Of a DNA stretch of 64,000 nt, positions 1 through 24,490 are shown one piece after another. A program made the translations under genes and the position numbers. The first letter of the stretch is position 1. Each line of letters starts with the position of its first letter. The notes beneath the pieces were generated by a model, which was not told where the DNA came from, did not search any database, and was given only the letters and a program-made list of their open reading frames with translations. The DNA is from Bacteroidales bacterium (GTDB lineage Bacteria > Bacteroidota > Bacteroidia > Bacteroidales > VadinHA17), in NCBI GenBank assembly GCA_021163295.1, contig JAGGXD010000182.1, positions 6,316-70,315 on the forward strand, given 5' to 3'.

Positions 1-2
1 AA

Positions 3-797
3 AGCAGTGCTTTCTCAATTGCAACTGCAGGCTGTAATCTTGCATGTCTCAACTGCCAGAACTGGTCAATCTCACAGAAAAGTCCGCGTGAAACAAGGAA
101 TTTTGACCTGATGCCGGATAAAGTTATTGAGGCTGCTATTGAAAGTGATTGTGAATCAATAGCATATACGTATTCCGAACCAATTACATTTTTTGAATAT
201 ACTTACGATACTTCAATATTAGCGCACAAGGCAGGAATAAAAAACGTACTGGTTTCAGCCGGATATATCAACGAAGAACCCCTGAGAAAACTTGCCAGTG
301 TAATTGATGCTGCTAATATTGATCTTAAGTCGTTTAAAGACAGTATATACCTGAAGTTAAATGCAGGAAAACTTGAACCAGTGCTTCGTACTCTTAAGAT
401 TTTGAATGAGGTTGGAGTATGGTTAGAAATTACAAATCTTATTGTCCCGGGTTGGACTGATGATTTTGATATGATAAAGGAGATGTGTGATTGGTTGTTT
501 AAGAATGGATTTGCTGATAACCCGTTGCATTTCAGTCGTTTTCAGCCTTTATATAAATTAACACAACTACCTCCTACTCCCCTGTCAACTCTAACTAAGG
601 CAAGGGAAATTGCATTGGATGCAGGGATAAAATATGTTTACATTGGTAATGTTCCGGGAACAGATGCCGAAAATACTTTCTGCCATAATTGTAATAAGAT
701 TATTATAAAACGACGTGGATACAGTATTCTGTCAAACCATATTAAGAATGGAAAGTGTGAGTATTGCGGTGAGCCTGTTGCAGGAGTATGGGAGTAA
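3..797 (+). CDS. Radical SAM enzyme, AmmeMemoRadiSam-system / PflA-activase-like; 5' end cut by window edge
   Basis: The frame is open from nt 3. Residues upstream of the ORF-track Met (nt 111) read SSAFSIATAGCNLACLNCQNW, which contains the canonical CxxxCxxC radical-SAM cluster motif. C-terminal cysteine pairs CHNCNK..CEYCG. Family name is from recalled homology. Confidence 0.7.
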   Translation, partial: SSAFSIATAGCNLACLNCQNWSISQKSPRETRNFDLMPDKVIEAAIESDCESIAYTYSEPITFFEYTYDTSILAHKAGIKNVLVSAGYINEEPLRKLASVIDAANIDLKSFKDSIYLKLNAGKLEPVLRTLKILNEVGVWLEITNLIVPGWTDDFDMIKEMCDWLFKNGFADNPLHFSRFQPLYKLTQLPPTPLSTLTKAREIALDAGIKYVYIGNVPGTDAENTFCHNCNKIIIKRRGYSILSNHIKNGKCEYCGEPVAGVWE

Positions 798-816
798 TTG
801 TTAACTTTGGCTCCTT

Positions 817-1395
817 ATGTTGAAGATAAACGATAAATGGACCTTCTTAATAAAGAATCTGCTTAATGGGATTTTCTGGCTTGCACTTTTTCTTGTAGTA
901 TTTATTCTGATCAAGAATGGGATTGATCTGAAATCTTCTCCTATTATAAATTCAATTCAGGATAAGCCGGTATTAGTTCTTTTTGTATATATCTTTTCAG
1001 AGGTTGTATTCGGGATCATCCCTCCTGAGTTTTTCATGCTCTGGTCGCTTCAATACACCAACCCTTTGCATTATGGTCTTATTGTATTATTACTTGCTGT
1101 TATTTCTTATATGGCAGGTGTATTAGGTTACTGGATTGGGGTATTCTTTAACAGGACAAGGTGGTATAGATATCTTCACGAAAAGTTTTTATATAAATAT
1201 CATGGAACAGCAAACCGGTTTGGTCTTTATTTAATTGCTGTTGCCAGTATGACACCAATACCTTTCTCAGCTATTTGTATGATTGTTGGGAGTGCAAGGT
1301 ATCCATTCAAAAAGCTTTTATTATATGCATGTTTTAGATTCGTGAGATTTGGTTTATACTCATTTCTTATTTGGCACGCGAATATTATGGGGTGA
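817..1395 (+). CDS. Integral membrane protein, DedA/YqaA (VTT-domain)-like
   Basis: 192-aa ORF with 4-5 hydrophobic segments (FWLALFLVVFILI, LVLFVYIFSEVVFGIIPPEFF, IVLLLAVISYMAGVLGYWIGVFF, LYLIAVASMTPIPFSAICMIVG). Confidence 0.45.
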   Translation: MLKINDKWTFLIKNLLNGIFWLALFLVVFILIKNGIDLKSSPIINSIQDKPVLVLFVYIFSEVVFGIIPPEFFMLWSLQYTNPLHYGLIVLLLAVISYMAGVLGYWIGVFFNRTRWYRYLHEKFLYKYHGTANRFGLYLIAVASMTPIPFSAICMIVGSARYPFKKLLLYACFRFVRFGLYSFLIWHANIMG

Positions 1396-1403
1396 TGCAG
1401 TGT

Positions 1404-1436
1404 GTTGAGTAGTTGAGTAGTTAAGTAAGTTGAGTG
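1404..1436 (+). repeat. Imperfect 8-bp tandem repeat (GTTGAGTA x3, then degenerate) inside a C-poor spacer
   Basis: gttgagta gttgagta gttaagta agttgagtg, read directly. It starts 9 nt after the TGA at 1393-1395. The spacer 1396-1470 has only 3 C. Confidence 0.7.
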
Positions 1437-1474
1437 GGAAGACGAGGAGAAGAATAGGTGCAATTTAGTAGCCT

Positions 1475-2335
1475 TTATTCTTCGTAGAAAAACCTGGAAA
1501 CAAGTGAAGCTGGTATCTCTTCAAAATAACGGTTTGAGGGATGAATATTTTCAGGAGCATTTGACAGGATTTCGTTAGGTGATTTTTCCTTTTCGTTCTT
1601 TAACCTTTCAAAAAATGTTCCGGAAGTAATATCCCTGTCTGTTTTTTTTCTTGAATCAGAAAAGACATAAAGATCTTTATTATAGTATTTGCATGCAAGT
1701 GCAATGAGCATACTGCCTGTTTTATTAACAAAACTCTTTTCAAAAATCGCATCTGCGCCAAGTATAGCGTAATCAATTGCTGGTATATGTAAACTAACTG
1801 ATGCATCGGTTATCAATGTAATATTCAATTTTTTTCTTGCAAGGAACTTTGCCTGAAGTATCCCTTCTTTTGCCGGATATGAGACAGTTTGTATGATATC
1901 AGGACAAATATTCTTTTTACATAATATATTAAAAACTGATCTGATAGTTAAACTATTACTATGCAACAGAACTTTTTTATTCTTCAAATCAAGGCTACTA
2001 ATTACTGATGCAGCTATTCTGTCATTAACATCTTTCCATTTACTTTTATAGGATAACAGGAACTGTGACATTTCTTTCATTATTTCTCTGGCCGGGAACC
2101 GGTATCCTTCAAGTACTTTAAGCCTATTATTGAATGCCCTGTAAAAATGAAAATAAATTGAAAAACCAGGGAAACCATCAATTAGACGGTTTAAAATACT
2201 CTTCATATCCTGTATAGAATAATTTCCGATATCATTATGATATTCCTCCAACAGATCCAACAGTCTGGCAAGAAGTGCTGATGAGCCTGAACGATTGTCA
2301 CTCAATAATTTATCTATTTCTTTGAAAATATTCAT
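1475..2335 (-). CDS. eIF-2B alpha/beta/delta-family protein (sugar-phosphate isomerase-like fold)
   Basis: The ORF track gives 1475..2407, but that start abuts the divergent gene at 2411. I trimmed to the internal ATG at 2335 (MNIFKEIDKLLSDNRSGSSALL). The C-terminal half (GADAIFEKSFVNKTGSMLIALACKYYNKDLYVF) resembles the IF-2B/MtnA family. Confidence 0.55.
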   Translation of the reverse strand: MNIFKEIDKLLSDNRSGSSALLARLLDLLEEYHNDIGNYSIQDMKSILNRLIDGFPGFSIYFHFYRAFNNRLKVLEGYRFPAREIMKEMSQFLLSYKSKWKDVNDRIAASVISSLDLKNKKVLLHSNSLTIRSVFNILCKKNICPDIIQTVSYPAKEGILQAKFLARKKLNITLITDASVSLHIPAIDYAILGADAIFEKSFVNKTGSMLIALACKYYNKDLYVFSDSRKKTDRDITSGTFFERLKNEKEKSPNEILSNAPENIHPSNRYFEEIPASLVSRFFYEE

Positions 2336-2410
2336 GTAATGTTTTTCGACATAAAAGTAAGAATTTAGATTATTATTAGTATATTCCTGAAAATAATTAA
2401 TTATCAAAAT

Positions 2411-4018
2411 TTGTATAAACTTAGTTCTAACATTTCCACAAATTCGACCGGATTCAAGGAGAAAAGGGAAGCGAATTTAAAATTGGTTGAAGAATATAAA
2501 AAGGAAATTCGCAAATTACAGGAGGGCGGAGGGAAAAATGCTATTGATAAACACAGGTCGAGAGGTAAGTTGCTTGCACGTGAAAGAATAGATTTATTAA
2601 TTGATCCGGATACACCTTTCCTGGAGCTTTCGGCACTGGCAGCTTACAATCAGTATGATAATAAATTCCCATCGGCAGGAATTGTTACAGGGATAGGTAT
2701 TATTCATGGCAGGGAGACAATAATTGTAGCTAATGATGCTACAGTTAAAGGCGGAACATATATTTCTGAAACAATAAAGAAACACATTCGTGCGCAGGAA
2801 ATTGCTATGGAAAACCGTTTACCTTGTGTCTATATGGTAGATTCGGGTGGAGTTTTTTTACCTGATCAGGCAAAAGTTTTTCCGGACAAATATGATTTCG
2901 GCAGGATTTTCTTTAACCAGGCAAGGTTATCGGCAGAAGGAATACCACAATTATCTATTGTTATGGGATCCTGTACTGCCGGTGGTGCTTATGTTCCTGC
3001 TATGAGTGACGAGACAATTATCGTAAAAAAACAAGGAACAATTTTTATTGGTGGTCCTCCATTAGTTAAGGCTGCTACAGGTGAGGAAGTTACTGCCGAG
3101 GAGCTTGGTGGTGCTGATATTCACACTTCTGCTTCAGGTGTCTCTGATCATTTTGCTAATAATGATAAGCATGCAATTCAGATTTGCAGAAATATTTTCG
3201 AAACACTTCCACTCCCCGAAAGGCAAGCACTTGATCTTGCTTCAATTGAAGAACCTGCATACGATCCTGAAGAATTGTATGGAATAGCTCCTGTTGATAT
3301 AAAGCAATCAGTCGATTCAAAAGAAATTATTATGCGAATTGTTGATGGTAGCAAGTTTCATGAGTTTAAACAGCGTTATGCCCCAACAATGACAACCGGA
3401 TTTGCAAGAATTATGGGTTATCCTGTTGGAATTCTTGCAAATAATGGAGTATTATTCTCTGAAACTTCTCTGAAAGGAACTCATTTTATTGAGTTATGTA
3501 CACAGAGAAAAATACCGATCATTTTCCTGCAGAATATTACAGGCTTTATTGTTGGCAGAAAGTATGAAAAGCAAGGTATTGCAAGGGATGGAGCCAAGTT
3601 GGTGCATGCAGTAGCAAATGCTACGGTACCTAAGTTTTCAATAATTTTTGGTGGATCATTTGGAGCAGGTAATTATGCAATGGCTGGCAGGGCATACGAA
3701 CCAAGATTGTTATTTATGTGGCCGAATGCCAGAATATCTGTAATGGGTGGCGATCAGGCAGCTGATGTACTGGTAACAATAAAAAGAGATCAGTATATAG
3801 CAAAAAACAAAAAAACTCCTGAGAAGGAACTAATAAAACTAAGAACCGAGATATTAAAAAAGTATAATTACGAAGGTTCTGCTTACTATAGCACATCGCG
3901 ATTATGGGATGACGGAATAATTGACCAGGTGGATACAAGGAAAATATTGGCAATGGGGATATCAATGTCTCTTAACAGGAGGTTCCCTGATCCAAAATTC
4001 GGAGTGTTCAGGATGTAA
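2411..4018 (+). CDS. Methylcrotonyl-CoA carboxylase beta subunit-like carboxyltransferase (liuB/mccB-like)
   Basis: 535-aa two-domain carboxyltransferase (ARERIDLLIDPDTPFLELS, GSCTAGGAYVPAMSDETIIV, PKFSIIFGGSFGAGNYAMAGRAY). There is no in-frame ATG near the 5' end, so TTG at 2411 is the likely start. Confidence 0.85.
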   Translation: MYKLSSNISTNSTGFKEKREANLKLVEEYKKEIRKLQEGGGKNAIDKHRSRGKLLARERIDLLIDPDTPFLELSALAAYNQYDNKFPSAGIVTGIGIIHGRETIIVANDATVKGGTYISETIKKHIRAQEIAMENRLPCVYMVDSGGVFLPDQAKVFPDKYDFGRIFFNQARLSAEGIPQLSIVMGSCTAGGAYVPAMSDETIIVKKQGTIFIGGPPLVKAATGEEVTAEELGGADIHTSASGVSDHFANNDKHAIQICRNIFETLPLPERQALDLASIEEPAYDPEELYGIAPVDIKQSVDSKEIIMRIVDGSKFHEFKQRYAPTMTTGFARIMGYPVGILANNGVLFSETSLKGTHFIELCTQRKIPIIFLQNITGFIVGRKYEKQGIARDGAKLVHAVANATVPKFSIIFGGSFGAGNYAMAGRAYEPRLLFMWPNARISVMGGDQAADVLVTIKRDQYIAKNKKTPEKELIKLRTEILKKYNYEGSAYYSTSRLWDDGIIDQVDTRKILAMGISMSLNRRFPDPKFGVFRM

Positions 4019-4055
4019 ACCAGTCCAAAGCCGGCAGTCGGCATGAAAGTAAATT

Positions 4056-4853
4056 ATGAGAGAATTCACAACTCTTTTAGTAGATTTTGAAGATGATGTA
4101 GCTGTTATATGGCTTAACAGACCGGAGATACATAATGCCTTTAATGAAATAATGATCTCGGAGCTGATTGACTGCTTTGAGGAAATTAATAAGCTGGATA
4201 AAATCAGGGTGGTAATTTTTAAAGGAAAAGGGGAATCTTTTTGTTCAGGAGCTGATCTTAATTGGATGAAGGATGTTGCAAATTATACATATGAGCAAAA
4301 CTACAATGAAAGTTACCAGCTTTCAAAATGCTTCCATACCATTTATACATGCAATAAACCAACAATAGCAGTGGTTCACGGAGCTGCTATTGGAGGGGCT
4401 AATGGTTTACTTGCCGCATGTGATATGGCATATTGTGATCATGACACGGTTTTTTCTCTTAGCGAAGTAAAAATTGGAATTATACCTGCATGTATTTCTC
4501 CATATGTAATAAAAAGAATTGGTGAATTTGCGGCAAGGGAACTGATGTTGACAGGCAGGCGAATAAAAGGAAAAGAGGCAGAATCGTTCCGTCTGGTTAA
4601 CAAATCACTTAACGTTAATGAGCAGGAATCATATATTAAATCGGTTATCGAAAAATTACAGACCAGTGGACCAAAGGCAATTGAGCATTGCAAAAAATTA
4701 ATATACAATATATCAAACAAGCTGACATTAGATCGGGCACTGGAGGAAACGGCAAGAATAATTGCAGAGATAAGAAAATCAGAAGAGGGCCAGGAAGGAA
4801 TGCAGGCTTTTCTTGAAAAAAGAATTCCAAAATGGGTATCCCGGAAGAAGTAA
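4056..4853 (+). CDS. Enoyl-CoA hydratase (crotonase) family, methylglutaconyl-CoA hydratase-like (liuC-like)
   Basis: 265-aa crotonase fold (VVIFKGKGESFCSGADLNWM, GAAIGGANGLLAACDMAY), sandwiched between the two MCC subunits. Confidence 0.8.
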   Translation: MREFTTLLVDFEDDVAVIWLNRPEIHNAFNEIMISELIDCFEEINKLDKIRVVIFKGKGESFCSGADLNWMKDVANYTYEQNYNESYQLSKCFHTIYTCNKPTIAVVHGAAIGGANGLLAACDMAYCDHDTVFSLSEVKIGIIPACISPYVIKRIGEFAARELMLTGRRIKGKEAESFRLVNKSLNVNEQESYIKSVIEKLQTSGPKAIEHCKKLIYNISNKLTLDRALEETARIIAEIRKSEEGQEGMQAFLEKRIPKWVSRKK

Positions 4854-4871
4854 GTAGTAGGAAGAAAAGAA

Positions 4872-4897
4872 GTTTGAGGTTTGAGGTTTGAAGTTTA
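4872..4897 (+). repeat. Heptamer tandem repeat GTTTGAG x3.5
   Basis: gtttgag gtttgag gtttgaa gttta, starting 19 nt after the TAA at 4851-4853. The same unit recurs at 49791-49825 on the other strand. Confidence 0.85.
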
Positions 4898-4960
4898 AGA
4901 AAGGAAGAGGAAAAATATTCGAGGAAAAATGCCAGGGTTAAGATTGAGAAATTATGAGTT

Positions 4961-6970
4961 ATGAAATTATTTAAAAAAATACTTGTAGCAAACAGAGGGG
5001 AAATTGCAATTCGTGTGATGCGTACTGCTAAAGAAATGGGTATAAGGACAGTAGCTATATATTCTGAAGTGGATGCTGATTCGTTTCATGTTAAAGTTGC
5101 AGATGAATCATACTGTATAGGGATTGAAAGTCTTGCTGAAACATATTTAAACATTGAAAAGATAATAAAGATTGCCCTGAAAGCTGGTTGTGAAGCAATT
5201 CATCCGGGTTATGGTTTTCTTGCTGAGAATCCTGAATTTGTTAATGCGTGTGAGAGTTCAGGTATAATATTTATCGGGCCTTCGGGTAAAGTGATTGCTT
5301 TAATGGGAAATAAAATTGAAGCCAGAAGTTTTATTAGAAGTATTAATATTCCACTTATTGAGGGTGCTGTAGGCAAGGATACTGAGTCATTGATAAAAGC
5401 AGGAAAGAAGATATCATTTCCCCTTTTATTGAAAGCTGCTGCTGGTGGTGGTGGTAAAGGGATGAGGATTGTCAGGGATGAAAAACAGCTTCGTGAAGGG
5501 TTAGAATCAACGGCCAGGGAAGCCGAAAAATATTTTGGTGATGGGACTGTTTATATTGAAAAGTACCTTGATGAATCAAGACATATAGAGTTTCAGGTTC
5601 TTGGTGATAATTTCGGGAATGCAATACATGTTTTTGAGAGAGAATGTTCAATACAAAGACGTTACCAGAAAATTATTGAAGAATCTCCTTCAGTTACATT
5701 ATCACCCAAAATCCGTGAGAAGATGGGTGAAACAGCAGTTAAAATATGTAAGAAAACGGGGTATAATAATGCAGGTACAATAGAATTCCTGGTTGATAAG
5801 AATCTGAATTTTTTCTTTCTCGAAATGAATACACGGATACAGGTTGAACATCCGGTAACAGAACTTACAACAGGGCTTGATCTGGTTAAGGAGCAGATAC
5901 TCATTAGTGCAGGAAATCCCTTGCGTTATAAACAAAAAGATATTGCACAAAAAGGTCACGCTATTGAAGCCAGAATATATGCAGAAGATCCCTCAAACAG
6001 TTTCCTGCCGTCACCGGGAAAAATGACATTTTATAAAGAACCGGCAGGTAAGAATACCAGGGTGGATACTGCTGTTAAAGAAGCTGCAGAGATTAAAAGT
6101 TTATACGATCCGATGATAAGCAAATTAATTGTTTATGGTAATAACAGGAATGAAGCAATAGGTAAGCTTGAATCAGCATTATCTGAATATGTAATTCATG
6201 GCATTCAAACAAATATTGAGTTCTTAATTGGGGTTTTACAACATGAAAAGTATAGGAATAATCAGATATCTACACTATTCTGTTCTGAGAAAAGTTCTGC
6301 AATCATTGATAGTATAAAAAGAAAAAAGCATAAATTGGCTTTGTTTGTTCCTGTACTGGTTTTTGCAGCTTATATCTTACATAAAAAAAAATCCGATCAT
6401 TTCTCTTTTGATATGGAAAAACAATTTATTTGGAATTATATAGGTTATTGGAGAAATATAATTAAAATACCTGTACAGGTTAACGGAGAGGAAAAAGAAG
6501 TAAATGTTTATTACAATAAAAATGGAGAATTTATAACGGAATTAGAAGAACGGGAATATTTAGTAAAATCTAACAGAATATCAAATGGGGAAATTGATAT
6601 ATACATAAATAATAAACCTGTTCACGCATTTATTTCTAAGAAAAGTATATTCCATTATTATATTACATATCAAGGGAATATTTTTGAGATAATCAGAAGA
6701 GATTATTTGCAGGATGATATGGATACCAGGTCGTTTGAAGAAGATTTTGGTGACGGTTCGGGTGTTTTGATATCCCCAATGCCAGGCAAAGTAATAAAGA
6801 TAAACACTAAGAAAGGTGCAAAGATATCCAAAGGAGCAGTTGTTATGATAATTGAAGCAATGAAGATGGAGAATAATATAATTGCCGGTAAAGATGGAGT
6901 TATAAGTAAAATAAATGTTACTTCCGGTCAAATGGTTGAAGGGGGAGCATCATTGGGTTTGATTGAATAA
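4961..6970 (+). CDS. Methylcrotonyl-CoA carboxylase alpha subunit-like (biotin carboxylase + BT linker + biotinyl domain; liuD/mccA-like)
   Basis: 669 aa. N-terminal ATP-grasp biotin carboxylase (ILVANRGEIAIRVMRTAKEMGI, KAAAGGGGKGMRIV, EMNTRIQVEHPVTE) and C-terminal biotinyl domain with the EAMKMEN biotinylation motif. Confidence 0.85.
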   Translation: MKLFKKILVANRGEIAIRVMRTAKEMGIRTVAIYSEVDADSFHVKVADESYCIGIESLAETYLNIEKIIKIALKAGCEAIHPGYGFLAENPEFVNACESSGIIFIGPSGKVIALMGNKIEARSFIRSINIPLIEGAVGKDTESLIKAGKKISFPLLLKAAAGGGGKGMRIVRDEKQLREGLESTAREAEKYFGDGTVYIEKYLDESRHIEFQVLGDNFGNAIHVFERECSIQRRYQKIIEESPSVTLSPKIREKMGETAVKICKKTGYNNAGTIEFLVDKNLNFFFLEMNTRIQVEHPVTELTTGLDLVKEQILISAGNPLRYKQKDIAQKGHAIEARIYAEDPSNSFLPSPGKMTFYKEPAGKNTRVDTAVKEAAEIKSLYDPMISKLIVYGNNRNEAIGKLESALSEYVIHGIQTNIEFLIGVLQHEKYRNNQISTLFCSEKSSAIIDSIKRKKHKLALFVPVLVFAAYILHKKKSDHFSFDMEKQFIWNYIGYWRNIIKIPVQVNGEEKEVNVYYNKNGEFITELEEREYLVKSNRISNGEIDIYINNKPVHAFISKKSIFHYYITYQGNIFEIIRRDYLQDDMDTRSFEEDFGDGSGVLISPMPGKVIKINTKKGAKISKGAVVMIIEAMKMENNIIAGKDGVISKINVTSGQMVEGGASLGLIE

Positions 6971-6999
6971 GGGAAGAAGGGATTAGAGGGAGTAAAGGG
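6971..6999 (+). other. Canonical G-quadruplex-forming motif (G3 N5 G3 N6 G3 N6 G3) on the mRNA-sense strand
   Basis: GGGaagaaGGGattagaGGGagtaaaGGG begins at the first nt after the TAA stop (6968-6970). There is no C until 7046. Confidence 0.6.
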
Positions 7000-7098
7000 A
7001 ATATGATGAAAAGAGGGAAAATAGTTAAGATTTGGATTTAAGAATCAAAAATAGAAAAAAATAGTTTTTAAATTTATTCACAATAAAAGATTACATAT

Positions 7099-8145
7099 AT
7101 GGTTGGAATTATCGGATATGGTACACAAATACCTCGTTATCGCATAAAGGTTGAAGAGATAGCGAAGGTTTGGGGAGCGGATGCAGCTGCTTTATCAAAT
7201 GGATTGAACCTTTTTGAAAAATCGGTACCTGCACCTGATGAGGATACTGCTACACTTGCAGTTAGTGCGGCAAAAAATGCTCTTGCAAGAGCAGGAATTG
7301 ATCCGAAATTGATCGGAGCTGTTTATGTAGGAAGCGAATCGCATCCTTATGCTGTTAAGCCTACGGGAACAATTGTTTCTGAAGCATTGGGCATTTGTCC
7401 TTATGTTCACACGGCAGATCTTGAATTTGCCTGTAAAGCGGGTACTGAAGGTATGTTCATTGCCTTGCATCTTGTTAAAACCGGTGTAATGGAATGTGCA
7501 CTGGCAATAGGTGCTGATACCTCTCAGGGAGCTCCGGGAGATGCACTTGAATATTCAGCGAGTGCGGGGGCTGCAGCGTTTATAATGGGAACAAAAAATA
7601 TTGTTGCTGAATTGGTGGATACTCAATGTTATATGACAGATACTCCTGATTTTTGGAGACGGGAAAATGCTCACTATCCTGAACATGGTGGCAGATTTAC
7701 CGGCAAACCGGCATATCAGAAACATGTTTTCGGAGCTGTAAAGGCAATCCTTGAAAAAACAGGAATGAAGCCAAAGGATTTTGACTATCTTGTTTTTCAT
7801 CAGCCAAATGGCAAATTCCCGGTTCAGGCTGCAAAACAGCTTGGTTTCACAGAAGCTCAGTATCGTTATGGCTTATTAACCCCTACTCTGGGGAATACTT
7901 ATTCGGGCTCCTCCCCTATAGGATTAGCTGCCACCTTAGATGAAGCCGGTTCTGATCAGCTCATACTGCTTGTATCATACGGATCAGGGGCAGGAAGTGA
8001 TGCCTTTGTGTTTCGTACCACAAAACATTTGCTGAAAATCCAGAATCTGGCTCCCAGGGTCAGAAAGCAATTAAACAAACATTTAACATATCTGGAGTAT
8101 GGTGAGTATGCAAAATTCAGAGGTAAAATTCTTAAACCAGAATAG
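7099..8145 (+). CDS. Hydroxymethylglutaryl-CoA synthase, archaeal/short type
   Basis: 348 aa. The N-terminus (MVGIIGYGTQIPRYRIKVEEIAKVWG..EKSVPAPDEDTATLAV..GSESHPYAVKPT..DLEFACKAGT) closely matches the archaeal-type HMGCS pattern as I recall it. Confidence 0.8.
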   Translation: MVGIIGYGTQIPRYRIKVEEIAKVWGADAAALSNGLNLFEKSVPAPDEDTATLAVSAAKNALARAGIDPKLIGAVYVGSESHPYAVKPTGTIVSEALGICPYVHTADLEFACKAGTEGMFIALHLVKTGVMECALAIGADTSQGAPGDALEYSASAGAAAFIMGTKNIVAELVDTQCYMTDTPDFWRRENAHYPEHGGRFTGKPAYQKHVFGAVKAILEKTGMKPKDFDYLVFHQPNGKFPVQAAKQLGFTEAQYRYGLLTPTLGNTYSGSSPIGLAATLDEAGSDQLILLVSYGSGAGSDAFVFRTTKHLLKIQNLAPRVRKQLNKHLTYLEYGEYAKFRGKILKPE

Positions 8146-8154
8146 GAGAATAAT

Positions 8155-9312
8155 ATGAAAGAAATAGCTGTAATAGGAATTGGAATAACAAAATTCGGTG
8201 AACTATGGGAAAAATCTCTTAGAGATATTGCCGTAGAAAGTGCAATGAATTGTCTTGATGATTCGGGTATCGACAGGATTGATTCAATTAATATTGGCTG
8301 TATGTCAAGCGGATTATTTAATGGACAGGAACATCTGGCAAGTATGATCGCTGATTATTTAGGAAGATTGGACATTCCATCAACTCGTGTTGAATCTGCT
8401 TGTGTTTCCGGAGGTCTTGCTGTTCGTAATGCCTGCCTGGAAATTGCTGCGGGAGTTTCTGATTATGCATTAGCCATAGGAGTGGAAAAAATGACTGATG
8501 TGAGTATGGGAAATGCAACTTATGCTTTAGCAACTGCAGCCGATCAGGATTATGAAGCATTTCACGGAATTACATTTCCCGGATTATATGCAATGCTTGC
8601 CAGGGCACACATGGAGCGTTATGGAACAACAAGGGAACAAATGGCACAGGTTTCTGTAAAAAACCATTATAATGGTTCGATGAATCCAAATGCCCAGTTT
8701 CCTTTCAAAATTACACAGGATACAGTTCTGAATTCGACCATGATCGCTGATCCTTTACGTTTAATGGATTGCTCACCTGTTACTGATGGTGCTGCAGCAG
8801 TGTTACTTACCACAGTTGAAAAAGCTAAAAAGCTAAATAAGCACCCACTGGTTGTAATAACCGGTATTGGCAGTGCTACTGATACAATTGCTCTTAGTCA
8901 TCGTAAGGAACTAACCGAATTAAAGGCTGTTAAAACATCTGCTGCCAAAGCATTACAAATGGCAGGAAAAACTATTAATGATATTGATTTTGCCGAGGTG
9001 CATGATTGTTTCACAATCGCTGAAATCCTGGTATTGGAATCAATGGGTATAGTTGGTCCGGGTAAAGGTGGTCCTGCAACAGTTGATGGTTATACTGCAC
9101 TTGATGGGAAATTCCCTGTTAATCCATCAGGAGGATTGAAGTCGAAAGGACATCCCGTTGGAGCTACAGGTGTTGCACAGATTTTTGAAGTTGTAAATCA
9201 ATTAAGAGGCAATAGCGAAAAACGCCAGATTCCCGAAGTAAAAACCGGTCTTGCCCAGAATATGGGTGGATCCGGTGGAAGTAGTATTTGTCACATATTA
9301 GAAGTTAAATAA
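8155..9312 (+). CDS. Thiolase (acetyl-CoA acetyltransferase), archaeal/SCP-x type
   Basis: 385-aa thiolase fold ([10 protein letters not shown] active-site Cys region, [24 protein letters not shown]). The gap to HMGCS is 9 nt. Confidence 0.8.
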
Positions 9313-9347
9313 ATACAACATGTTATTAATTTAAAAACTAACATATT

Positions 9348-9746
9348 ATGAATGTTCCAAGACACTGGAGAGAAACGCCTGAACGTTACAGGATGGAAGC
9401 AGTAAAATGCAGGAAATGTGGAAAAATTTCATTTCCTGCCAGGCTAATTTGTCCTGAATGTAAAAACAAGGTATTTGATAAAATTAACCTTTCGGGGAAA
9501 GGCAAACTTTTAACATATACAATTATTCGAACTGCCCCTGAAGGATTTGAAGATGTTGCACCATATGCTGTTGGTATTGTTGAAATGGAAGAGGGGGTCA
9601 GGGTTATGGGGCAGATTACCGATTGTGATCTGTTGAGTTTGAAAACCGGTGATAAGTTAATTTCCAAGTTCAGAAGAATGAATGAGGAAGGAAAAACAGG
9701 ACTTATAATGTATTCATACAAGTTCGTTCCCGATATTGGAATCTGA
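9348..9746 (+). CDS. DUF35 Zn-ribbon/OB-fold protein (scaffold of thiolase/HMGCS complex)
   Basis: 132 aa. CRKCGKISFPARLICPECK zinc ribbon followed by an OB-fold-like region. Conserved gene partnership with the two preceding genes. Confidence 0.75.
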   Translation: MNVPRHWRETPERYRMEAVKCRKCGKISFPARLICPECKNKVFDKINLSGKGKLLTYTIIRTAPEGFEDVAPYAVGIVEMEEGVRVMGQITDCDLLSLKTGDKLISKFRRMNEEGKTGLIMYSYKFVPDIGI

Positions 9747-9775
9747 AAAAGAAAAAATATTAACCTGAATTAAAT

Positions 9776-10921
9776 ATGTATTTATCTGAAGAACATGAAT
9801 TAATACGTAAAACTGTTAGAGATTTTGCTGAAAGAGAAATAAAACCTGTTGCGGCTGAGTTAGATGAAAAAGGAGAATTTTCTATAGAGAATACTGCAAG
9901 GATGGGTGAATTAGGTCTATTTGGAATGTGCCTGCCTGAAAAATATGGTGGACAAAATATGGATACTTTATCTTATATTATTGCAGTTGAAGAATTAGCA
10001 AGGGTTGACAGTTCACATGCAGCTACTCTGGCAGCGCATAATTCATTGGGGATTAAGCCCATAATGAATTTCGGGACTGAAGAACAAAAGATGAATTATT
10101 TGCCACGTTTATGTACTGGTAAGGAGCTTTGGGCTTTTGGACTTACCGAACCGGAAGCGGGCTCGGATTGCCTGGGGACTAAAACAACGGCTAAACTTTT
10201 AGATGGATACTGGAATATTAACGGATCAAAATGTTTTATTACAAATGGAGCTGTTGATATCTCAAGTGGAGTGACAGTACTTTCTGTTACAGGCACGAAA
10301 GAAGATGGCAAGAAAGAGTTTTCAACAATCATAGTTGAAAAAGACACTACCGGGTTTACCAGGAGGTCAATGCATAATAAAATGATGTGGAGAGCATCGG
10401 ATACCTCCGAGTTGTTTTTTGATGATTGTAAAGTACCTGAATTAAATCTGCTTGGCAAAGTGGGTGAAGGTTCCAAAATAATGTTAAAAACACTTGATAG
10501 CGGAAGACTTTCCATAGCAGCTATGGGGTTGGGACTCGCGCAGGGAGCTTTTGAAATGGCATTACAATACGCAAAGGAAAGAAAACAGTTTGGCAGACCT
10601 ATCGTAAAATTCCAGGCTATTTCTTTTAAACTAGCTGATATGGCTACGAAAATTGATCTGGCCAGAACATATTTGTATCATGCTTGCTGGCTTGAAACAA
10701 ATGGCAAAGAATTTGGAAAAGAAGCTGCAATAGCAAAACTCTATTGTTCTGAAATAGCAAAGGAGGTTGCAGATGAAGCTGTACAAATACATGGTGGCTA
10801 CGGATTGATGAAGGATTACGATATTGAAAGATTCTATCGTGACCAGCGATTACTACAAATTGGTGAAGGAACTTCAGAAATTCAACGTCTGGTAATTGCC
10901 CGTAAGATTGGTGCAGTATAA
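9776..10921 (+). CDS. Acyl-CoA dehydrogenase (short/branched-chain; isovaleryl- or butyryl-CoA dehydrogenase-like)
   Basis: 381-aa ACAD pattern (GLTEPEAGSD, FITNG, QIGEGTSEIQRLVIAR). Last gene of the co-directional cluster. Confidence 0.85.
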   Translation: MYLSEEHELIRKTVRDFAEREIKPVAAELDEKGEFSIENTARMGELGLFGMCLPEKYGGQNMDTLSYIIAVEELARVDSSHAATLAAHNSLGIKPIMNFGTEEQKMNYLPRLCTGKELWAFGLTEPEAGSDCLGTKTTAKLLDGYWNINGSKCFITNGAVDISSGVTVLSVTGTKEDGKKEFSTIIVEKDTTGFTRRSMHNKMMWRASDTSELFFDDCKVPELNLLGKVGEGSKIMLKTLDSGRLSIAAMGLGLAQGAFEMALQYAKERKQFGRPIVKFQAISFKLADMATKIDLARTYLYHACWLETNGKEFGKEAAIAKLYCSEIAKEVADEAVQIHGGYGLMKDYDIERFYRDQRLLQIGEGTSEIQRLVIARKIGAV

Positions 10922-10926
10922 AAAAA

Positions 10927-10956
10927 AGCAGTCGGGAAACTACCGGCTGCTTTCTT
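10927..10956 (+). terminator. Intrinsic terminator-like hairpin ending the acyl-CoA operon
   Basis: 9-bp stem AGCAGTCGG/CCGGCTGCT (one G-U), loop GAAACTA, then TTCTT. Starts 6 nt after the stop codon. Confidence 0.6.
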
Positions 10957-10977
10957 ACTGTGAAAAAACTTACATAT

Positions 10978-11202
10978 TTATAGCAATGTCATTAATCTCC
11001 TGATCTTCATAACTGACAATTCACTATAAGCCTTATTGATTTTTTTATCTAACTTATCAATTAAGTTAGTGCCCGGGTTCTTTTCTTCCGGTATATCGGT
11101 TGTGTTAACTGATCGGTCAGGATACATAAGCCTGTCCCTCTCCTTTTCCAGAAACTTAAGCCTGGCCTTCTGATTATTTAACTGTTCTTCAAGATATCCC
11201 AT
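10978..11202 (-). CDS. Small hypothetical coiled-coil protein (74 aa)
   Basis: ORF only. Charged heptad-like sequence (LEEQLNNQKARLKFLEKERDRL). The frame stays open 28 codons upstream of the ATG without another ATG, so it could be a fragment. Confidence 0.25.
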   Translation of the reverse strand: MGYLEEQLNNQKARLKFLEKERDRLMYPDRSVNTTDIPEEKNPGTNLIDKLDKKINKAYSELSVMKIRRLMTLL

Positions 11203-11292
11203 TTTAAGAGTTTTATTATGTGACTCTGATTCTGTAAAACGCTCTCTGAATAAAAGACGATTAACTTTCCATTTAGTTGCAATTTGGATTGA

Positions 11293-12009
11293 TTATTTTG
11301 ATTTTGACAAGGAATAACCCGCTAATTGAATAGATTTCATTGCCAGGATTTTGAGAGGGTTGATCAGAGGGATGTTTATATGTGATTGTTTTATTACAAG
11401 CGAAATCTCAGTACATCCCGAAATTATTGTACATGCCCCATTTTTTTGCAGATTTGCAATCGACTGGAGAAGGATTTTCCTGGGAACAGTTTTAAAGCCT
11501 GCCTTTATACCATTTTTACCATATATGGCAGTCATATTTTGTTGCTGATACAAAGCATCCGGATTAATTATTTCAGAAGAAATATTTTCAAATGCTTTTT
11601 TATAAATAGCTGTTTTATAGACTCCTGAGGTAGAAAGTAATCCATGTTTTTTTATTTCAGGAAACTTGTGCAAAACATGCCGGGCTGTTTCTTTTATCAT
11701 ATTAATAATCGGCACATGTATATTTTCTTCTATCTGCTTAATAAAAAAATGGGCTGTATTGCATGGTATAAGTATAATGTCAGCACCCATTTTTTCCAAC
11801 TTTAAAGCTCCTTCGATAAGCATTTTAACAGGTGAAGAACCTTTCCCAAGAATAAACAATGAGCGGTCAGGAATTCCTGGATTATTAACAATTAGCACAG
11901 GTATATGATCCTGATCATTATATGCTTTGGTATTCTTTATGATCAAACTGAACAATTCAGATGTTGCTTCAGGTCCCATACCTCCGAGAATACCTATTTG
12001 TTTCTTCAT
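11293..12009 (-). CDS. Aspartate/glutamate racemase-family protein (aspartate racemase-like)
   Basis: 238 aa. GILGGMGPEATSELF N-terminal motif and the second catalytic-Cys region (ISGCTEISLV). Confidence 0.8.
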   Translation of the reverse strand: MKKQIGILGGMGPEATSELFSLIIKNTKAYNDQDHIPVLIVNNPGIPDRSLFILGKGSSPVKMLIEGALKLEKMGADIILIPCNTAHFFIKQIEENIHVPIINMIKETARHVLHKFPEIKKHGLLSTSGVYKTAIYKKAFENISSEIINPDALYQQQNMTAIYGKNGIKAGFKTVPRKILLQSIANLQKNGACTIISGCTEISLVIKQSHINIPLINPLKILAMKSIQLAGYSLSKSK

Positions 12010-22401: not shown

Positions 22402-23916
22402 ATGATCAAGAAAATCCTAATCGCTAACCGTGGAGAGATTGCAGTAAGGGTTATCAGGTCGTGCCACGAAATGGGAATTAATACAGTAGCGGTCTTCTCG
22501 GAAGCTGACAGGAAATCACTACATGTCAGATATGCTGATGAAGCATATTGTATTGGTCCCCCACCCTCAACAGAAAGTTATTTAAGAATTGACAAAATCC
22601 TGGAAGTTGCTAAAAAAACAAAATCAGATGCAATTCATCCCGGATATGGATTTTTATCTGAGAATCCTGAATTTTCCCGCAGGATAAAGGAATCAGGTTT
22701 AATTTTTATCGGGCCTTCAGAGTTTTCCATTCGAAATATGGGAGACAAGATCAGCGCAAGGCAAATTATGATAAAAGCAGGCGTTCCTGTGGTTCCGGGT
22801 ACAAAAGAAAAAATATTGAATAAAAAGCAAGCATTGAATACTGTTGAAAATATTGGTCTTCCGGTCATGATTAAAGCAGCCTCGGGAGGTGGGGGAAAAG
22901 GAATGCGCCTTGTTAAAAAGAAAGAAATGGTTTGGGAATCAGTGCAAGCTGCAAAATCTGAAGCTCTGGATTCATTTGGAGATGATTCAGTATATGTTGA
23001 GAAATATATTGGATATCCCCATCATATTGAATTTCAGATTTTAGCTGACCAGCATGGAAATATTATTCACTTGTTTGAGAGAGAGTGTTCTGTTCAACGA
23101 AGACATCAGAAAATTATTGAAGAGACACCAAGTCCTTTGTTAACGGATAATTTGCGGCAGGAAATGGGTAAATGTGCTATAGATGCCGCAAAGGCTGTAA
23201 ATTACGAAGGTGCCGGAACTATTGAATTCCTTGTTGATAAGGACTTGAACTATTATTTCCTTGAGATGAATACCAGACTTCAGGTGGAACATCCGGTTAC
23301 TGAAAATGTTACCGGTATTGACCTGGTAAAAGAACAAATTAAAATTGCCGGGGGACAAAAGCTTTCTTATCAGCAAAATGAGGTTTATCAAAAAGGACAT
23401 TCTATTGAATGCCGTATATATGCTGAAGACTCGGATAATAATTTTATGCCAAGCCCGGGTATAATAACAAAAATGACTGAGCCATCAGGGATTGGTGTTA
23501 GAATTGATGGCTATGTTTTTGAGAATTTTGAAGTACCTGTTTTTTACGACCCACTGATATCAAAGCTCATAACTTATGGAAGAAACAGGGAAGAAGCAAT
23601 AAACAGAATGAAGAGATGTCTGGATGAATACTACCTGACAGGGGTTAAAACTTCTCTGCATTTTCTCAGCAGAATAATGGAAACACCTGATTTTGTTGAA
23701 GGCAAGTATAATACCCATTTTATAGAGCAAAACCACAATTTTCTTTTTAATTCATTTAATGGGGATGATATCATGAAGAGTACAGAAGATATGGTTGCAA
23801 TAGTATCTTTGCTCGAGTATGAATCAAATATGCACCAAAAATCAGGAAATAACCATTCATCTTCACATAATCCATGGAAAGAATTTGGGAGAAAATTAGG
23901 AATTACCAGGTTATGA
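22402..23916 (+). CDS. accC: Biotin carboxylase subunit of acyl-CoA carboxylase
   Basis: 504-aa ATP-grasp BC motifs (ILIANRGEIAVRVIRSCHEMGI, KAASGGGGKGMRLV, EMNTRLQVEHPVTE). Confidence 0.9.
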   Translation: MIKKILIANRGEIAVRVIRSCHEMGINTVAVFSEADRKSLHVRYADEAYCIGPPPSTESYLRIDKILEVAKKTKSDAIHPGYGFLSENPEFSRRIKESGLIFIGPSEFSIRNMGDKISARQIMIKAGVPVVPGTKEKILNKKQALNTVENIGLPVMIKAASGGGGKGMRLVKKKEMVWESVQAAKSEALDSFGDDSVYVEKYIGYPHHIEFQILADQHGNIIHLFERECSVQRRHQKIIEETPSPLLTDNLRQEMGKCAIDAAKAVNYEGAGTIEFLVDKDLNYYFLEMNTRLQVEHPVTENVTGIDLVKEQIKIAGGQKLSYQQNEVYQKGHSIECRIYAEDSDNNFMPSPGIITKMTEPSGIGVRIDGYVFENFEVPVFYDPLISKLITYGRNREEAINRMKRCLDEYYLTGVKTSLHFLSRIMETPDFVEGKYNTHFIEQNHNFLFNSFNGDDIMKSTEDMVAIVSLLEYESNMHQKSGNNHSSSHNPWKEFGRKLGITRL

Positions 23917-23953
23917 CTACACTTATAATAACACAATAATTTATAGGAGCTTT

Positions 23954-24457: not shown

Positions 24458-24490
24458 CCTGTTAACCGGATTTGATAAAATGTTTCAATT

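Follow-up and report, generated by a model that had tools for sequence, protein, structure and literature searches.

A liu-like operon of a sediment Bacteroidales bacterium with an archaeal-type HMG-CoA synthase trio in the place of HMG-CoA lyase: a possible lyase-free route from isovaleryl-CoA to acetyl-CoA

Introduction

The liu genes of Pseudomonas are arranged in the order liuB-liuC-liuD, followed by liuE. In archaea, a trio formed by a thiolase, an HMG-CoA synthase and a DUF35 protein is known for feeding the mevalonate/isoprenoid pathway. A third system, the alternative isovaleryl-CoA (AIB) route MvaS-LiuC-AibAB-AibC, is established in myxobacteria (PMC5389471).

Here we describe an operon from an uncultured sediment Bacteroidales bacterium that combines a liu-like gene set with the archaeal-type trio. 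It lies in a 64-kb stretch of DNA, referred to below as the window. Its features are:

2335..2410, no strand: predicted divergent promoter region, flanked by the operon and a minus-strand IF-2B-family gene (read from sequence)
2411..4018, plus strand: MCC-beta (carboxyltransferase, LiuB-like), 535 aa
4056..4853, plus strand: crotonase, probable 3-methylglutaconyl-CoA hydratase (LiuC-like), 265 aa
4961..6970, plus strand: MCC-alpha, a fusion of biotin carboxylase and biotin carboxyl carrier domain, 669 aa
7099..8145, plus strand: archaeal-type HMG-CoA synthase, 348 aa
8155..9312, plus strand: archaeal-type (SCP2-like) acetoacetyl-CoA thiolase, 385 aa
9348..9746, plus strand: DUF35 scaffold protein, zinc ribbon and OB fold, 132 aa
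9776..10921, plus strand: acyl-CoA dehydrogenase, short-chain/butyryl-CoA type, 381 aa
10925..10958, plus strand: intrinsic terminator, 11-bp hairpin then UUUCUU (RNA fold and sequence)

Results

Operon structure

An earlier note on this DNA had described seven co-directional genes with gaps of 9-128 nt ending at a hairpin terminator, and the ORF coordinates agree (gaps of 37, 107, 128, 9, 35 and 29 nt). The terminator begins 4 nt past the last stop codon with an 11-bp stem at 10925-10953, followed by UUUCUU; its fold (dG -17.9 kcal/mol, z -4.84 against shuffles) was equalled by 0 of 200 shuffles. At the other end, MCC-beta has no ATG close to the TTG at 2411, and its start is uncertain, and the minus-strand IF-2B-family ORF starts with an ATG at 2334, so that region 2335-2410 is probably a divergent promoter region. 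ORFs and domain searches revealed no regulator gene in the operon that would point to one inducer. Since a Rikenellaceae MAG (L007) has the identical seven-gene order, and two cold-seep Bacteroidota MAGs (L003 and L004) contain part of the operon, it is not an assembly artefact.

Protein assignments

Profile searches matched the domain content previously proposed for all seven proteins. MCC-beta (Pfam Carboxyl_trans, 497 bits) scored 700 bits against PDB entry 9tps, 687 against human MCC-beta and 676 against P. aeruginosa MCC-beta, compared to 454 bits for geranyl-CoA carboxylase beta and at most 275 bits for PCC-beta. By sequence, the carboxyltransferase belongs with the methylcrotonyl-CoA carboxylases; the geranyl-CoA and propionyl-CoA types, raised in the earlier note as possible contrary assignments, were rejected on these scores. 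It is also 60-68% identical to trio-adjacent carboxyltransferases of Aminicenantes, Zixibacteria and others. MCC-alpha comprises Biotin_carb_N, CPSase_L_D2, Biotin_carb_C and Biotin_lipoyl domains. Its glycine-rich loop for ATP, GGGGKG, lies at 162 and its biotinylation motif AMKM at 633-636; the EMNTRIQVEH block is present too. A role in decarboxylation alone would not require this intact ATP-grasp biotin carboxylase and biotinyl-lysine motif; in other phyla, separate BC and BCCP genes are retained in the cluster. The crotonase (ECH_1, 189 bits) had as its best NCBIfam match PRK05674, of the P. aeruginosa LiuC/GnyH type, with 245 bits, below the 426-bit cut-off. Its gene sits between those of the carboxylase subunits, a position kept in about 30 loci, and it is probably a LiuC-like 3-methylglutaconyl-CoA hydratase.

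For each protein of the trio, the solved archaeal complex is the top match or close to it. The HMG-CoA synthase exceeds the cut-offs of TIGR00748 (509 bits) and NF003274 (524 bits), scores 459 bits against the synthase chain of the M. thermolithotrophicus complex 6ESQ, and shows no variation at the catalytic residues E80, C112, H234 and N266 when 89 sequences are aligned. The thiolase exceeds the cut-off of NF004720 (515 bits), reaches 505 bits with NF053570 and 352 bits with 6ESQ chain A, and bears intact C83-x-S, H283-D-C-F and G332-H, the motifs named in PMC12960953. The DUF35 protein has zf-ChsH2 and OB_ChsH2_C domains, zinc-ribbon cysteines C21, C24, C35 and C38 in its translation, and the 6ESQ DUF35 chain as its top PDB match (128 bits). 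The three products presumably form a physical complex. Sequence changes specific to the bacterial clade are uninformative on direction, because they are also found in carriers with an HMG-CoA reductase.

The acyl-CoA dehydrogenase (Acyl-CoA_dh N, M and C domains) is closest in the PDB, at 395-349 bits, to short-chain/Bcd enzymes. With at most 262 bits for isovaleryl-CoA dehydrogenases, orthology to these was rejected. The C-terminal motif is IGEGTSEIQR; the catalytic Glu is placed as in SCAD, and a Gly replaces SCAD's Tyr. The protein is 60% and 69% identical to MCC-adjacent dehydrogenases in two other Bacteroidia genomes, and its gene context suggests that it would serve the isovaleryl-CoA/3-methylcrotonyl-CoA redox step.

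HMG-CoA enzymes in the genome

The earlier note had seen the trio in the place of HMG-CoA lyase and no lyase-like ORF in the window. Gene order and the absent lyase agree with the former, and the latter extends to the whole 96.6%-complete genome: searches covering lyases of the HMGL fold found no HMG-CoA lyase in either. The sole HMGL-fold protein is LeuA, within an ilvDBNC-leuACDB-ilvA operon, on which the lyase model scores just 37 bits. HMG-CoA reductase was not found genome-wide, and tblastn gave no homologue of the reductase, mevalonate-pathway kinase, decarboxylase or IDI-2 of a relative. Dxr is encoded, and hence the genome uses the MEP route. The contrary case that the note had envisaged, a lyase elsewhere together with a complete mevalonate pathway, is thus not what this genome holds. 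Without lyase and reductase, HMG-CoA is left with the trio on one side and the carboxylase branch on the other, and one or the other must oppose its textbook direction.

The genome further encodes crt-hbd-bcd-IcmF-buk, a set consistent with degradation of valine or isobutyrate. Its single ETF is encoded by etfB-etfA, adjoining a membrane Fe-S oxidoreductase and an acyl-CoA dehydrogenase, a set resembling the ETF:menaquinone system of fatty-acid oxidisers (PMC8805022). The only glutaconate-CoA-transferase-family pair (GctA 86 bits, AibA 56 bits) adjoins a 3-oxoadipyl-CoA-thiolase-like gene.

Conservation across bacteria

Out of 80 related loci, about 33 combine the trio with an MCC-type carboxyltransferase; these come from roughly ten bacterial phyla, among them Aminicenantes, Zixibacteria, Ignavibacteria, Eisenbacteria, Elusimicrobiota and Planctomycetota. 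In a 301-genome sample of the phylum, by contrast, only the present genome and six genomes of other classes have the archaeal-type synthase. The combination, earlier called unusual, is therefore so within class Bacteroidia, yet widespread in other uncultured phyla. Among 22 genomes with the linkage, a lyase is found in 3, a clear HMG-CoA reductase in 4 and neither in about 14, two complete chromosomes included; most carriers are MAGs, whose completeness limits how far a missing lyase can be trusted. More broadly, an HMG-CoA reductase exceeds the family cut-off in 7 of 30 trio-bearing genomes examined. The cluster's neighbours elsewhere are acyl-CoA genes of catabolic type (6 acyl-CoA dehydrogenase, 3 thiolase, 3 3-hydroxyacyl-CoA dehydrogenase and 2 methylmalonyl-CoA-mutase-family genes), and FabH is not among the 25 commonest neighbour families.

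The complete genome of a Marinilabiliaceae member of the same order clusters a dehydrogenase homologue (60% identical), MCC-alpha, hydratase and MCC-beta, adjoining IDI-2, HMG-CoA reductase, a GHMP kinase and mevalonate diphosphate decarboxylase. Neither an HMG-CoA synthase of any type nor a lyase was found in this genome, so the module there must make HMG-CoA. By analogy, its direction may support catabolism in the present operon.

Discussion

We consider it somewhat probable that the operon provides every step of a lyase-free route by which isovaleryl-CoA from leucine or isovalerate is turned into three acetyl-CoA, with the trio running in reverse. The intact ATP-binding and biotin motifs, the catabolic neighbours and the Marinilabiliaceae module argue for it. 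The acyl-CoA dehydrogenase would convert isovaleryl-CoA to 3-methylcrotonyl-CoA, passing electrons to the single ETF and the neighbouring membrane oxidoreductase; MCC would carboxylate the product, spending ATP; and the crotonase would hydrate 3-methylglutaconyl-CoA to HMG-CoA. The reversed synthase would then yield acetyl-CoA and acetoacetyl-CoA from HMG-CoA and CoA. Via the CoA site that the enzymes share, acetoacetyl-CoA would reach the thiolase, and its favourable thiolysis there would pull the unfavourable synthase step (net: HMG-CoA + 2 CoA -> 3 acetyl-CoA). If so, free acetoacetate would not be formed, a CoA-transferase would be unnecessary, and one extra thioester would be kept compared to the lyase route, worth about 1 ATP by substrate-level phosphorylation. 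No paper that we found describes such a route.

Thiolase condensation costs approximately +25 kJ/mol and the synthase step returns some -25 to -30, roughly cancelling, so that 3 acetyl-CoA and HMG-CoA + 2 CoA would be near equilibrium. At cellular ATP/ADP ratios, ATP-forming decarboxylation through MCC would, in turn, cost roughly 20 kJ/mol. Against catabolism, the HMG-CoA synthase reaction is considered irreversible under physiological conditions and we know of no report of reverse flux through it; Bcd-type dehydrogenases work reductively in many anaerobes, and the bidirectionality of ETF-linked membrane oxidoreductases, which run both ways in syntrophs (PMC8805022), also counts against it.

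The same dehydrogenase affinity, to fermenters' butyryl-CoA dehydrogenases, would suit de novo isovaleryl-CoA synthesis, the chief rival and the second option of the earlier note, which keeps the trio in its known direction and explains the missing lyase and reductase equally well. HMG-CoA made from three acetyl-CoA would be dehydrated, decarboxylated by the biotin enzyme (reversed with ATP made, or via the carboxyltransferase half alone) and reduced by the dehydrogenase with ETF to isovaleryl-CoA, an iso-odd fatty-acid primer or fermentation product. Iso-branched fatty acids abound in many carrier phyla, and groups rich in them include Bacteroidota, Ignavibacteria, Acidobacteriota and Myxococcota. 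We nevertheless find this rather unlikely: every cluster has a full ATP-grasp biotin carboxylase and biotin carrier, no physiological ATP synthesis by such an enzyme is known to us, and normal ATP/ADP ratios would make it strongly uphill. Besides, the operon contains no AibA/B-type decarboxylase or AibC-type reductase, the genome's sole transferase pair is more GctA- than AibA-like, a reductase is absent from most clusters in other phyla, and the Marinilabiliaceae module runs toward HMG-CoA. The genome also makes leucine, hence 2-oxoisocaproate, and a nine-thioester-equivalent bypass seems unnecessary.

Less probable still is an amphibolic module whose seven enzymes reverse with supply, breaking down plentiful leucine or isovalerate, or turning excess acetyl-CoA and reductant into branched primers or isovalerate as electron disposal. 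The near-equilibrium estimate for synthase plus thiolase, the bidirectional oxidoreductases and the missing single-inducer regulator are in its favour, yet the ATP-dependent carboxylase step is effectively one-way in cells and the sequence offers nothing for a switch. That the trio is an ordinary isoprenoid set merely adjoining a leucine operon, with the lyase encoded elsewhere, has its archaeal role and the reductase-bearing minority of trio genomes behind it; we hold it to be very improbable. The present genome, with Dxr and no lyase, reductase or mevalonate kinase/decarboxylase homologue, refutes it unless the missing 3.4% hides all these genes, and the short gaps, single terminator and trio-carboxylase linkage across phyla are further arguments against it. 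On direction, where the earlier note had leaned slightly to iso-fatty-acid primers without deciding, the balance now leans, though not decisively, to catabolism.

Among known systems, reversed citrate synthase in Desulfurella and Thermosulfidibacter is a precedent with the same chemistry for the catabolic reading. Synthesis would instead make the operon functionally analogous to MvaS-LiuC-AibAB-AibC of myxobacteria. In gene order, MCC-beta, hydratase and MCC-alpha correspond to liuB-liuC-liuD of Pseudomonas, with the trio at the position of liuE.

Architecture of the operon

Seven co-directional genes make up the operon:

2411-4018, + strand: methylcrotonyl-CoA carboxylase (MCC) beta subunit
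4056-4853, + strand: LiuC-like hydratase (crotonase)
4961-6970, + strand: MCC alpha subunit
7099-8145, + strand: archaeal-type HMG-CoA synthase (348 aa)
8155-9312, + strand: thiolase
9348-9746, + strand: DUF35 protein
9776-10921, + strand: acyl-CoA dehydrogenase

The intergenic gaps measure 37, 107, 128, 9, 35 and 29 nt. Profile searches bore out all seven gene assignments of an earlier note on this DNA, among them the archaeal trio of thiolase, HMG-CoA synthase and DUF35 protein (three neighbouring genes at 7099-9746, with gaps of 9 and 35 nt). The hairpin terminator placed there after the operon is real too: it lies 4 nt past the last stop codon and consists of an 11-bp stem followed by UUUCUU (−17.9 kcal/mol, z = −4.8 by RNA folding). 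An Rfam scan of window positions 1-12000 matched no family. A Rikenellaceae MAG has the identical seven-gene order, and two cold-seep Bacteroidota MAGs carry parts of the operon, with a synthase identity of 84-95%; given this recurrence, the arrangement is real and not an assembly artefact.

The MCC-beta ORF lacks an ATG, and its earliest possible start is the TTG at 2411 (window 2334-2484), 4 nt from the longest reading of a divergent IF-2B-family ORF for which the ATG at 2334 is the likelier start. The true start of MCC-beta may be farther downstream, as homologues align only from residue 15-25 on. The two long spacers (4854-4960 and 6971-7098) are purine-rich, with a nearly C-free sense strand, and several GGG runs lie 3' of the MCC-alpha stop codon; no terminator-like hairpin or Rfam match was found in either spacer.

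The trio and its carboxylase partners

Both the synthase (TIGR00748, 509 bits) and the SCP2-type thiolase (NF004720, 515 bits) scored above the cut-off of their profiles, and the DUF35 protein carries the zf-ChsH2 and OB_ChsH2_C domains. Against the chains of the archaeal complex structure 6ESQ, synthase, thiolase and DUF35 protein reached 459, 352 and 128 bits, in each case the best or second-best PDB match. Using a motif list for these proteins (PMC12960953), we found the thiolase motifs C83-V-S (CxS), H283-D-C-F (HDxF) and G332-H (GHx) and the zinc-ribbon cysteines C21, C24, C35 and C38 of the DUF35 protein, while the synthase tetrad E80, C112, H234 and N266 is invariant in 89 sequences. 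Judged by single-chain homology, the trio belongs at sequence level to the family of the archaeal complex.

In the PDB comparison, the MCC-beta protein scored 676-700 bits against MCC-beta structures, 454 bits against geranyl-CoA carboxylase and at most 275 bits against propionyl-CoA carboxylases. By this ranking the window carboxyltransferase is a member of the MCC clade, as had been proposed, and the geranyl-CoA or propionyl-CoA carboxylase alternative raised along with that proposal is ruled out. The best structural match is 9tps (also 9tqc and 9tqg; 700 bits, both proteins 535 aa), deposited as 'Propionyl CoA carboxylase beta subunit'; it may really be MCC-type, given that it scores above human and Pseudomonas MCC-beta against the window protein. 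Both MCC subunits are present in the operon. The alpha subunit was assigned from its biotin carboxylase (BC) and BCCP domains and AMKM biotinylation motif, and also has the glycine-rich ATP loop and the EMNTRIQVEH block. A second acyl-CoA carboxylase set lies at window 22402-26029 (504-aa biotin carboxylase, 167-aa carrier, 512-aa carboxyltransferase); its carboxyltransferase is 33% identical to MCC-beta, and the set is probably of the housekeeping propionyl/acetyl-CoA carboxylase type.

The top NCBIfam match of the crotonase is the Pseudomonas LiuC-type model PRK05674 (245 bits, under the cut-off of 426), and its position between the carboxylase subunits is kept across related loci. The acyl-CoA dehydrogenase is closer to SCAD/Bcd structures (395 bits) than to isovaleryl-CoA dehydrogenase (IVD, 262 bits). 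IVD has its catalytic Glu on helix G and Gly-Ala at the C-terminal site; here the catalytic Glu stands in a C-terminal IGEGT motif, the SCAD position, and the SCAD Tyr is replaced by Gly, as in IVD. On these scores and residues, the operon dehydrogenase is no orthologue of LiuA/IVD. Dehydrogenases encoded next to MCC genes in two further Bacteroidia genomes share 60% and 69% identity with it, which makes it the usual MCC partner of this lineage.

HMG-CoA sinks in the genome

We searched the whole assembly (3.49 Mb, 272 contigs, 96.6% complete) for enzymes that could consume HMG-CoA. There was no match to HMG-CoA reductase (PF00368) across the genome, and tblastn with the reductase, GHMP kinase, decarboxylase and IDI-2 of a relative returned no homologue; Dxr is present. 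The sole HMGL-fold (PF00682) protein is a 506-aa LeuA encoded in ilvD-ilvB-ilvN-ilvC-leuA-leuC-leuD-leuB-ilvA, and the lyase model NF004283 hit only this LeuA, at 37 bits. For reference, divergent true Bacteroidota lyases score 180-200 bits with this model, under the NCBIfam cut-off, and among trio-bearing genomes no score other than those of four true lyases exceeds 66 bits. A hidden lyase was hence rejected, its only candidate being a gene of the leucine-biosynthesis operon. The absence of HMG-CoA lyase, first noticed in the window, thus holds genome-wide, and the scenario that the earlier note had set against its own reading, a lyase and a mevalonate pathway elsewhere, did not materialise: neither was found in the genome searches. 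Since trio and carboxylase branch both normally make HMG-CoA and nothing else touches it, one of the two must run against its textbook direction.

Gene sets on three other contigs were also noted. On C39 (14921-22925), crt, a long 3-hydroxyacyl-CoA dehydrogenase, a Bcd-type dehydrogenase, a fused IcmF (1706 bits, above cut-off) and butyrate kinase form one string, consistent with breakdown of valine or isobutyrate through butyryl-CoA or with the opposite direction. On C241 (7276-13106), the single etfB-etfA of the genome precedes genes for a 701-aa membrane protein (Fe-S and HdrD/TfrB-like CCG domains) and a 601-aa acyl-CoA dehydrogenase, a layout like the ETF:menaquinone/methylmenaquinone oxidoreductase system of fatty-acid-oxidising syntrophs (PMC8805022). 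C84 (7735-13644) has a glutaconate-CoA-transferase-family pair with a 3-oxoadipyl-CoA-thiolase-like gene (620.6 bits, cut-off 622); facing them are genes for an IclR-type regulator, an iron alcohol dehydrogenase and an SDR. This pair, the only one of its family in the genome, is nearer GctA than AibA (a weak match, 56 bits); an AibA/B-like decarboxylase elsewhere in the genome is therefore unlikely, the sole candidate looking like a CoA-transferase beside a PcaF-like thiolase.

Distribution and phylogeny

A scan of species-representative genomes gave at least 594 stretches with synthase relatives, of which the best 80 were compared. They come from Bacteroidota, Aminicenantes/Acidobacteriota, Zixibacteria, Ignavibacteriota, Eisenbacteria, Planctomycetota, Calditrichota, Elusimicrobiota, Myxococcota and others. 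About 33 of the best 80 have an MCC-type carboxyltransferase (60-68% identical) in the same locus, and most of those with none seen are too short to judge. Synthase-thiolase-DUF35-MCCbeta-hydratase-BC-BCCP is the commonest order in linked loci. A tally of flanking genes revealed no recurring regulators, transporters or leucine-specific genes beside related clusters. The next-closest synthase relatives (78-79% identical; L008:3396-12245 and L009:10001-18636) show a second architecture, in which the trio is followed by biotin carboxylase and carboxyltransferase and then by dehydrogenase and hydratase; this carboxyltransferase is just 32% identical to MCC-beta and belongs to a different carboxylase lineage.

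A true lyase was found in four of 30 trio-bearing genomes and a reductase above the family cut-off in seven of the 30, lyase absence being limited by MAG incompleteness and possible non-homologous lyases. Where the trio is linked to the carboxylase, about 14 of 22 genomes lack both lyase and reductase, including the complete chromosomes CP070825 and CP070742. A check for complementarity of lyase and trio among MCC-bearing Bacteroidota was of only partial use, as its E-value threshold also took in a second carboxyltransferase clade (~48% identical, present in about two-thirds of the phylum).

In a quick maximum-likelihood tree, all 79 bacterial synthases form one clade apart from the 11 archaeal sequences (SH-aLRT 100, branch 0.5). 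Nested within that clade, the nine Bacteroidota synthases group together with good support; MCC linkage is scattered over the whole bacterial clade. Of 301 genomes sampled from the phylum, the trio occurs in the window's own and in six that belong to other classes; it is rare in class Bacteroidia. The common Bacteroidota carboxyltransferase (~48% identical) is more distant from the operon's MCC-beta than are the MCC-beta proteins of other phyla and of humans. The operon probably arrived by horizontal transfer.

Bacterial and archaeal synthases have different fixed residues at three positions, of which two lie on either side of the catalytic Cys112. Residue 104 (window 7408-7410) is His or Arg in bacteria and residue 117 (window 7447-7449) is Glu, versus Thr and Ala, respectively, in all 10-11 archaeal sequences, 6ESQ included. 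We considered these changes as a signature of a reversed enzyme and dropped the idea: they are independent of reductase presence, occurring also in carriers with a reductase, and so carry no information on direction.

A Marinilabiliaceae MAG with a complete chromosome (OY760941.1), from the same order as the window's genome, holds a homologous block:

L087:956-10788, minus strand: MCC-beta, hydratase, MCC-alpha, acyl-CoA dehydrogenase, IDI-2, class II HMG-CoA reductase, GYDIA GHMP kinase, mevalonate diphosphate decarboxylase

That genome lacks both types of HMG-CoA synthase and also a lyase. With mevalonate genes adjoining and synthase and lyase missing, its MCC block must supply HMG-CoA, and the mevalonate pathway looks as if it were fed only by leucine or isovalerate breakdown. 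In another Bacteroidia genome (G244; L088:5482-10827), a 597-aa AtuA-family protein occupies the MCC-alpha place, in the order MCC-beta, hydratase, AtuA, acyl-CoA dehydrogenase, the latter being the 69% identical one; searches of this genome turned up neither a lyase nor an archaeal-type synthase.

Direction of flux

We lean, by a modest degree, towards catabolism with a reversed trio. The carboxylase branch would convert isovaleryl-CoA to HMG-CoA, which the trio would cleave (HMG-CoA + 2 CoA -> 3 acetyl-CoA), the favourable thiolysis pulling the unfavourable synthase reversal via the shared CoA site. One thioester would thereby be saved per leucine in comparison with lyase plus CoA-transferase. 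To our knowledge, reversal of HMG-CoA synthase has not been reported. An intact ATP-dependent biotin carboxylase and its carrier, retained in every cluster, favour this direction, because a decarboxylation-only route would need neither. ATP-forming decarboxylation is approximately 20 kJ/mol uphill at cellular ATP/ADP ratios, and the sum of thiolase and synthase is, again approximately, near equilibrium. By analogy, the OY760941.1 block, which must supply HMG-CoA, argues for the same direction. So do the gene types that adjoin the clusters in other phyla (acyl-CoA dehydrogenases, ordinary thiolases, 3-hydroxyacyl-CoA dehydrogenases and methylmalonyl-CoA-mutase-family genes) and the further branched-chain sets of the own genome, namely the C39 string and the ETF on C241.

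De novo synthesis of isovaleryl-CoA, with the trio working forwards, would suit the many carrier phyla that are rich in iso-branched lipids, which counts against the catabolic reading. We nonetheless regard it as rather unlikely: no fatty-acid synthesis gene is among the 25 commonest neighbour families, and the organism makes leucine (ilv/leu operon), so that it has no obvious need of a costly bypass to isovaleryl-CoA. A further point against catabolism is that the ETF system (PMC8805022) and this type of dehydrogenase can also work reductively. To a module running in both directions we give a small share of credence. That the trio are mevalonate genes which merely adjoin a leucine operon is hardly credible: their archaeal family does start that pathway and a minority of carriers have a reductase, yet the own genome has Dxr and lacks reductase, kinase and decarboxylase, on which grounds we rejected the reading. 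Returning to catabolism with a reversed trio, its broadest form would make the trio a physiological, thioester-conserving HMG-CoA cleavage, replacing lyase, free acetoacetate and CoA-transferase in the catabolism of leucine, isovalerate and possibly isoprenoid tails across some ten mostly uncultured anaerobic phyla; for this we see the chances as evenly balanced.

Novelty and implications

A full-text literature search found no description of trio-MCC linkage, of a catabolic HMG-CoA synthase or of reverse synthase flux. New here are a Bacteroidales form that keeps the liu order and includes the dehydrogenase in the operon, the whole-genome absence of both HMG-CoA sinks, the mevalonate-coupled Marinilabiliaceae relative as an argument on direction, and the clade-level synthase tree. 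If true, the catabolic reading would give HMG-CoA synthase its first catabolic role and, next to reversed citrate synthase, would be a second example from nature of an 'irreversible' Claisen synthase reversed to save ATP. Leucine is among the most abundant protein amino acids, and isovalerate figures as a major intermediate when protein decays anoxically in sediments, digesters and guts. On the catabolic reading, the energy balance of anaerobic leucine or isovalerate oxidation would shift by about 1 ATP per molecule, which near the thermodynamic limit separates a worthwhile pathway from a pointless one, and this would help explain the livelihood of Aminicenantes, Zixibacteria, Ignavibacteria and some sediment Bacteroidales. 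Annotation would be corrected, as pipelines label the trio 'mevalonate pathway' in organisms without one. Enzymologists would gain a natural test of an HMG-CoA synthase driven backwards through channelling into thiolase, and metabolic engineers a scaffolded, reversible connection from acetyl-CoA to C5/C6 branched acyl-CoAs.

Comparison with known systems

As in the liuRABCDE cluster of Pseudomonas aeruginosa and P. putida, MCC-beta, a probable LiuC-type hydratase and MCC-alpha follow one another in liuB-liuC-liuD order, with an acyl-CoA dehydrogenase within the same operon. Unlike that cluster, the operon has no LiuE (HMG-CoA lyase), which is missing genome-wide and whose place the trio takes; its dehydrogenase is no LiuA/IVD orthologue, and no LiuR regulator was seen. 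The operon is thus liu-type by its carboxylase and probably by its hydratase, but fails on LiuE and LiuA.

The alternative isovaleryl-CoA biosynthesis (AIB) route of Myxococcus xanthus comprises MvaS, LiuC, AibA/AibB and AibC (PMC5389471). The resemblance to it suggested by the earlier note stands for the topology, in which an HMG-CoA synthase is linked to 3-methylglutaconyl-CoA, 3-methylcrotonyl-CoA and isovaleryl-CoA without a lyase, and falls for the components: the operon has no AibA/AibB, AibC or MvaS-type synthase (TIGR01835, the MvaS-type model, 112 bits against a cut-off of 360). Its synthase is of the archaeal three-protein type, an ATP-dependent biotin carboxylase takes the AibA/B place, a flavin dehydrogenase that of AibC, and the likely direction is opposite. 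In the leucine-to-mevalonate shunt of trypanosomatids (PMC5993337) and in the OY760941.1 cluster, the leucine branch likewise passes HMG-CoA to a non-lyase; unlike both, where HMG-CoA goes through reductase to isoprenoids, the window's genome has no reductase.

A reversible citrate synthase reportedly serves a reversed oxidative TCA cycle in Desulfurella acetivorans and Thermosulfidibacter takaii, in work ascribed to Mall et al. and Nunoura et al. in 2018. There too, an 'irreversible' Claisen-type synthase, whose forward step includes thioester hydrolysis, is used for cleavage by an anaerobe and saves ATP; its family and substrate differ and it has no scaffolded partner, so that the analogy is one of mechanism only.

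The closest system is the thiolase/HMG-CoA synthase/DUF35 channelling complex of Methanothermococcus thermolithotrophicus (PDB 6ESQ/6ET9), said to have been described by Vogeli et al. in PNAS in 2018. The three proteins are encoded side by side here as well, with catalytic residues and zinc ribbon kept. The archaeal complex starts the mevalonate pathway, whereas the window's genome has none, and the bacterial synthases form a clade of their own (SH-aLRT 100) with fixed changes beside the catalytic Cys. The trio genes lie inside a putative leucine-catabolism operon and the proposed direction is opposite, a reversal that would mirror the channelling logic described for archaea.
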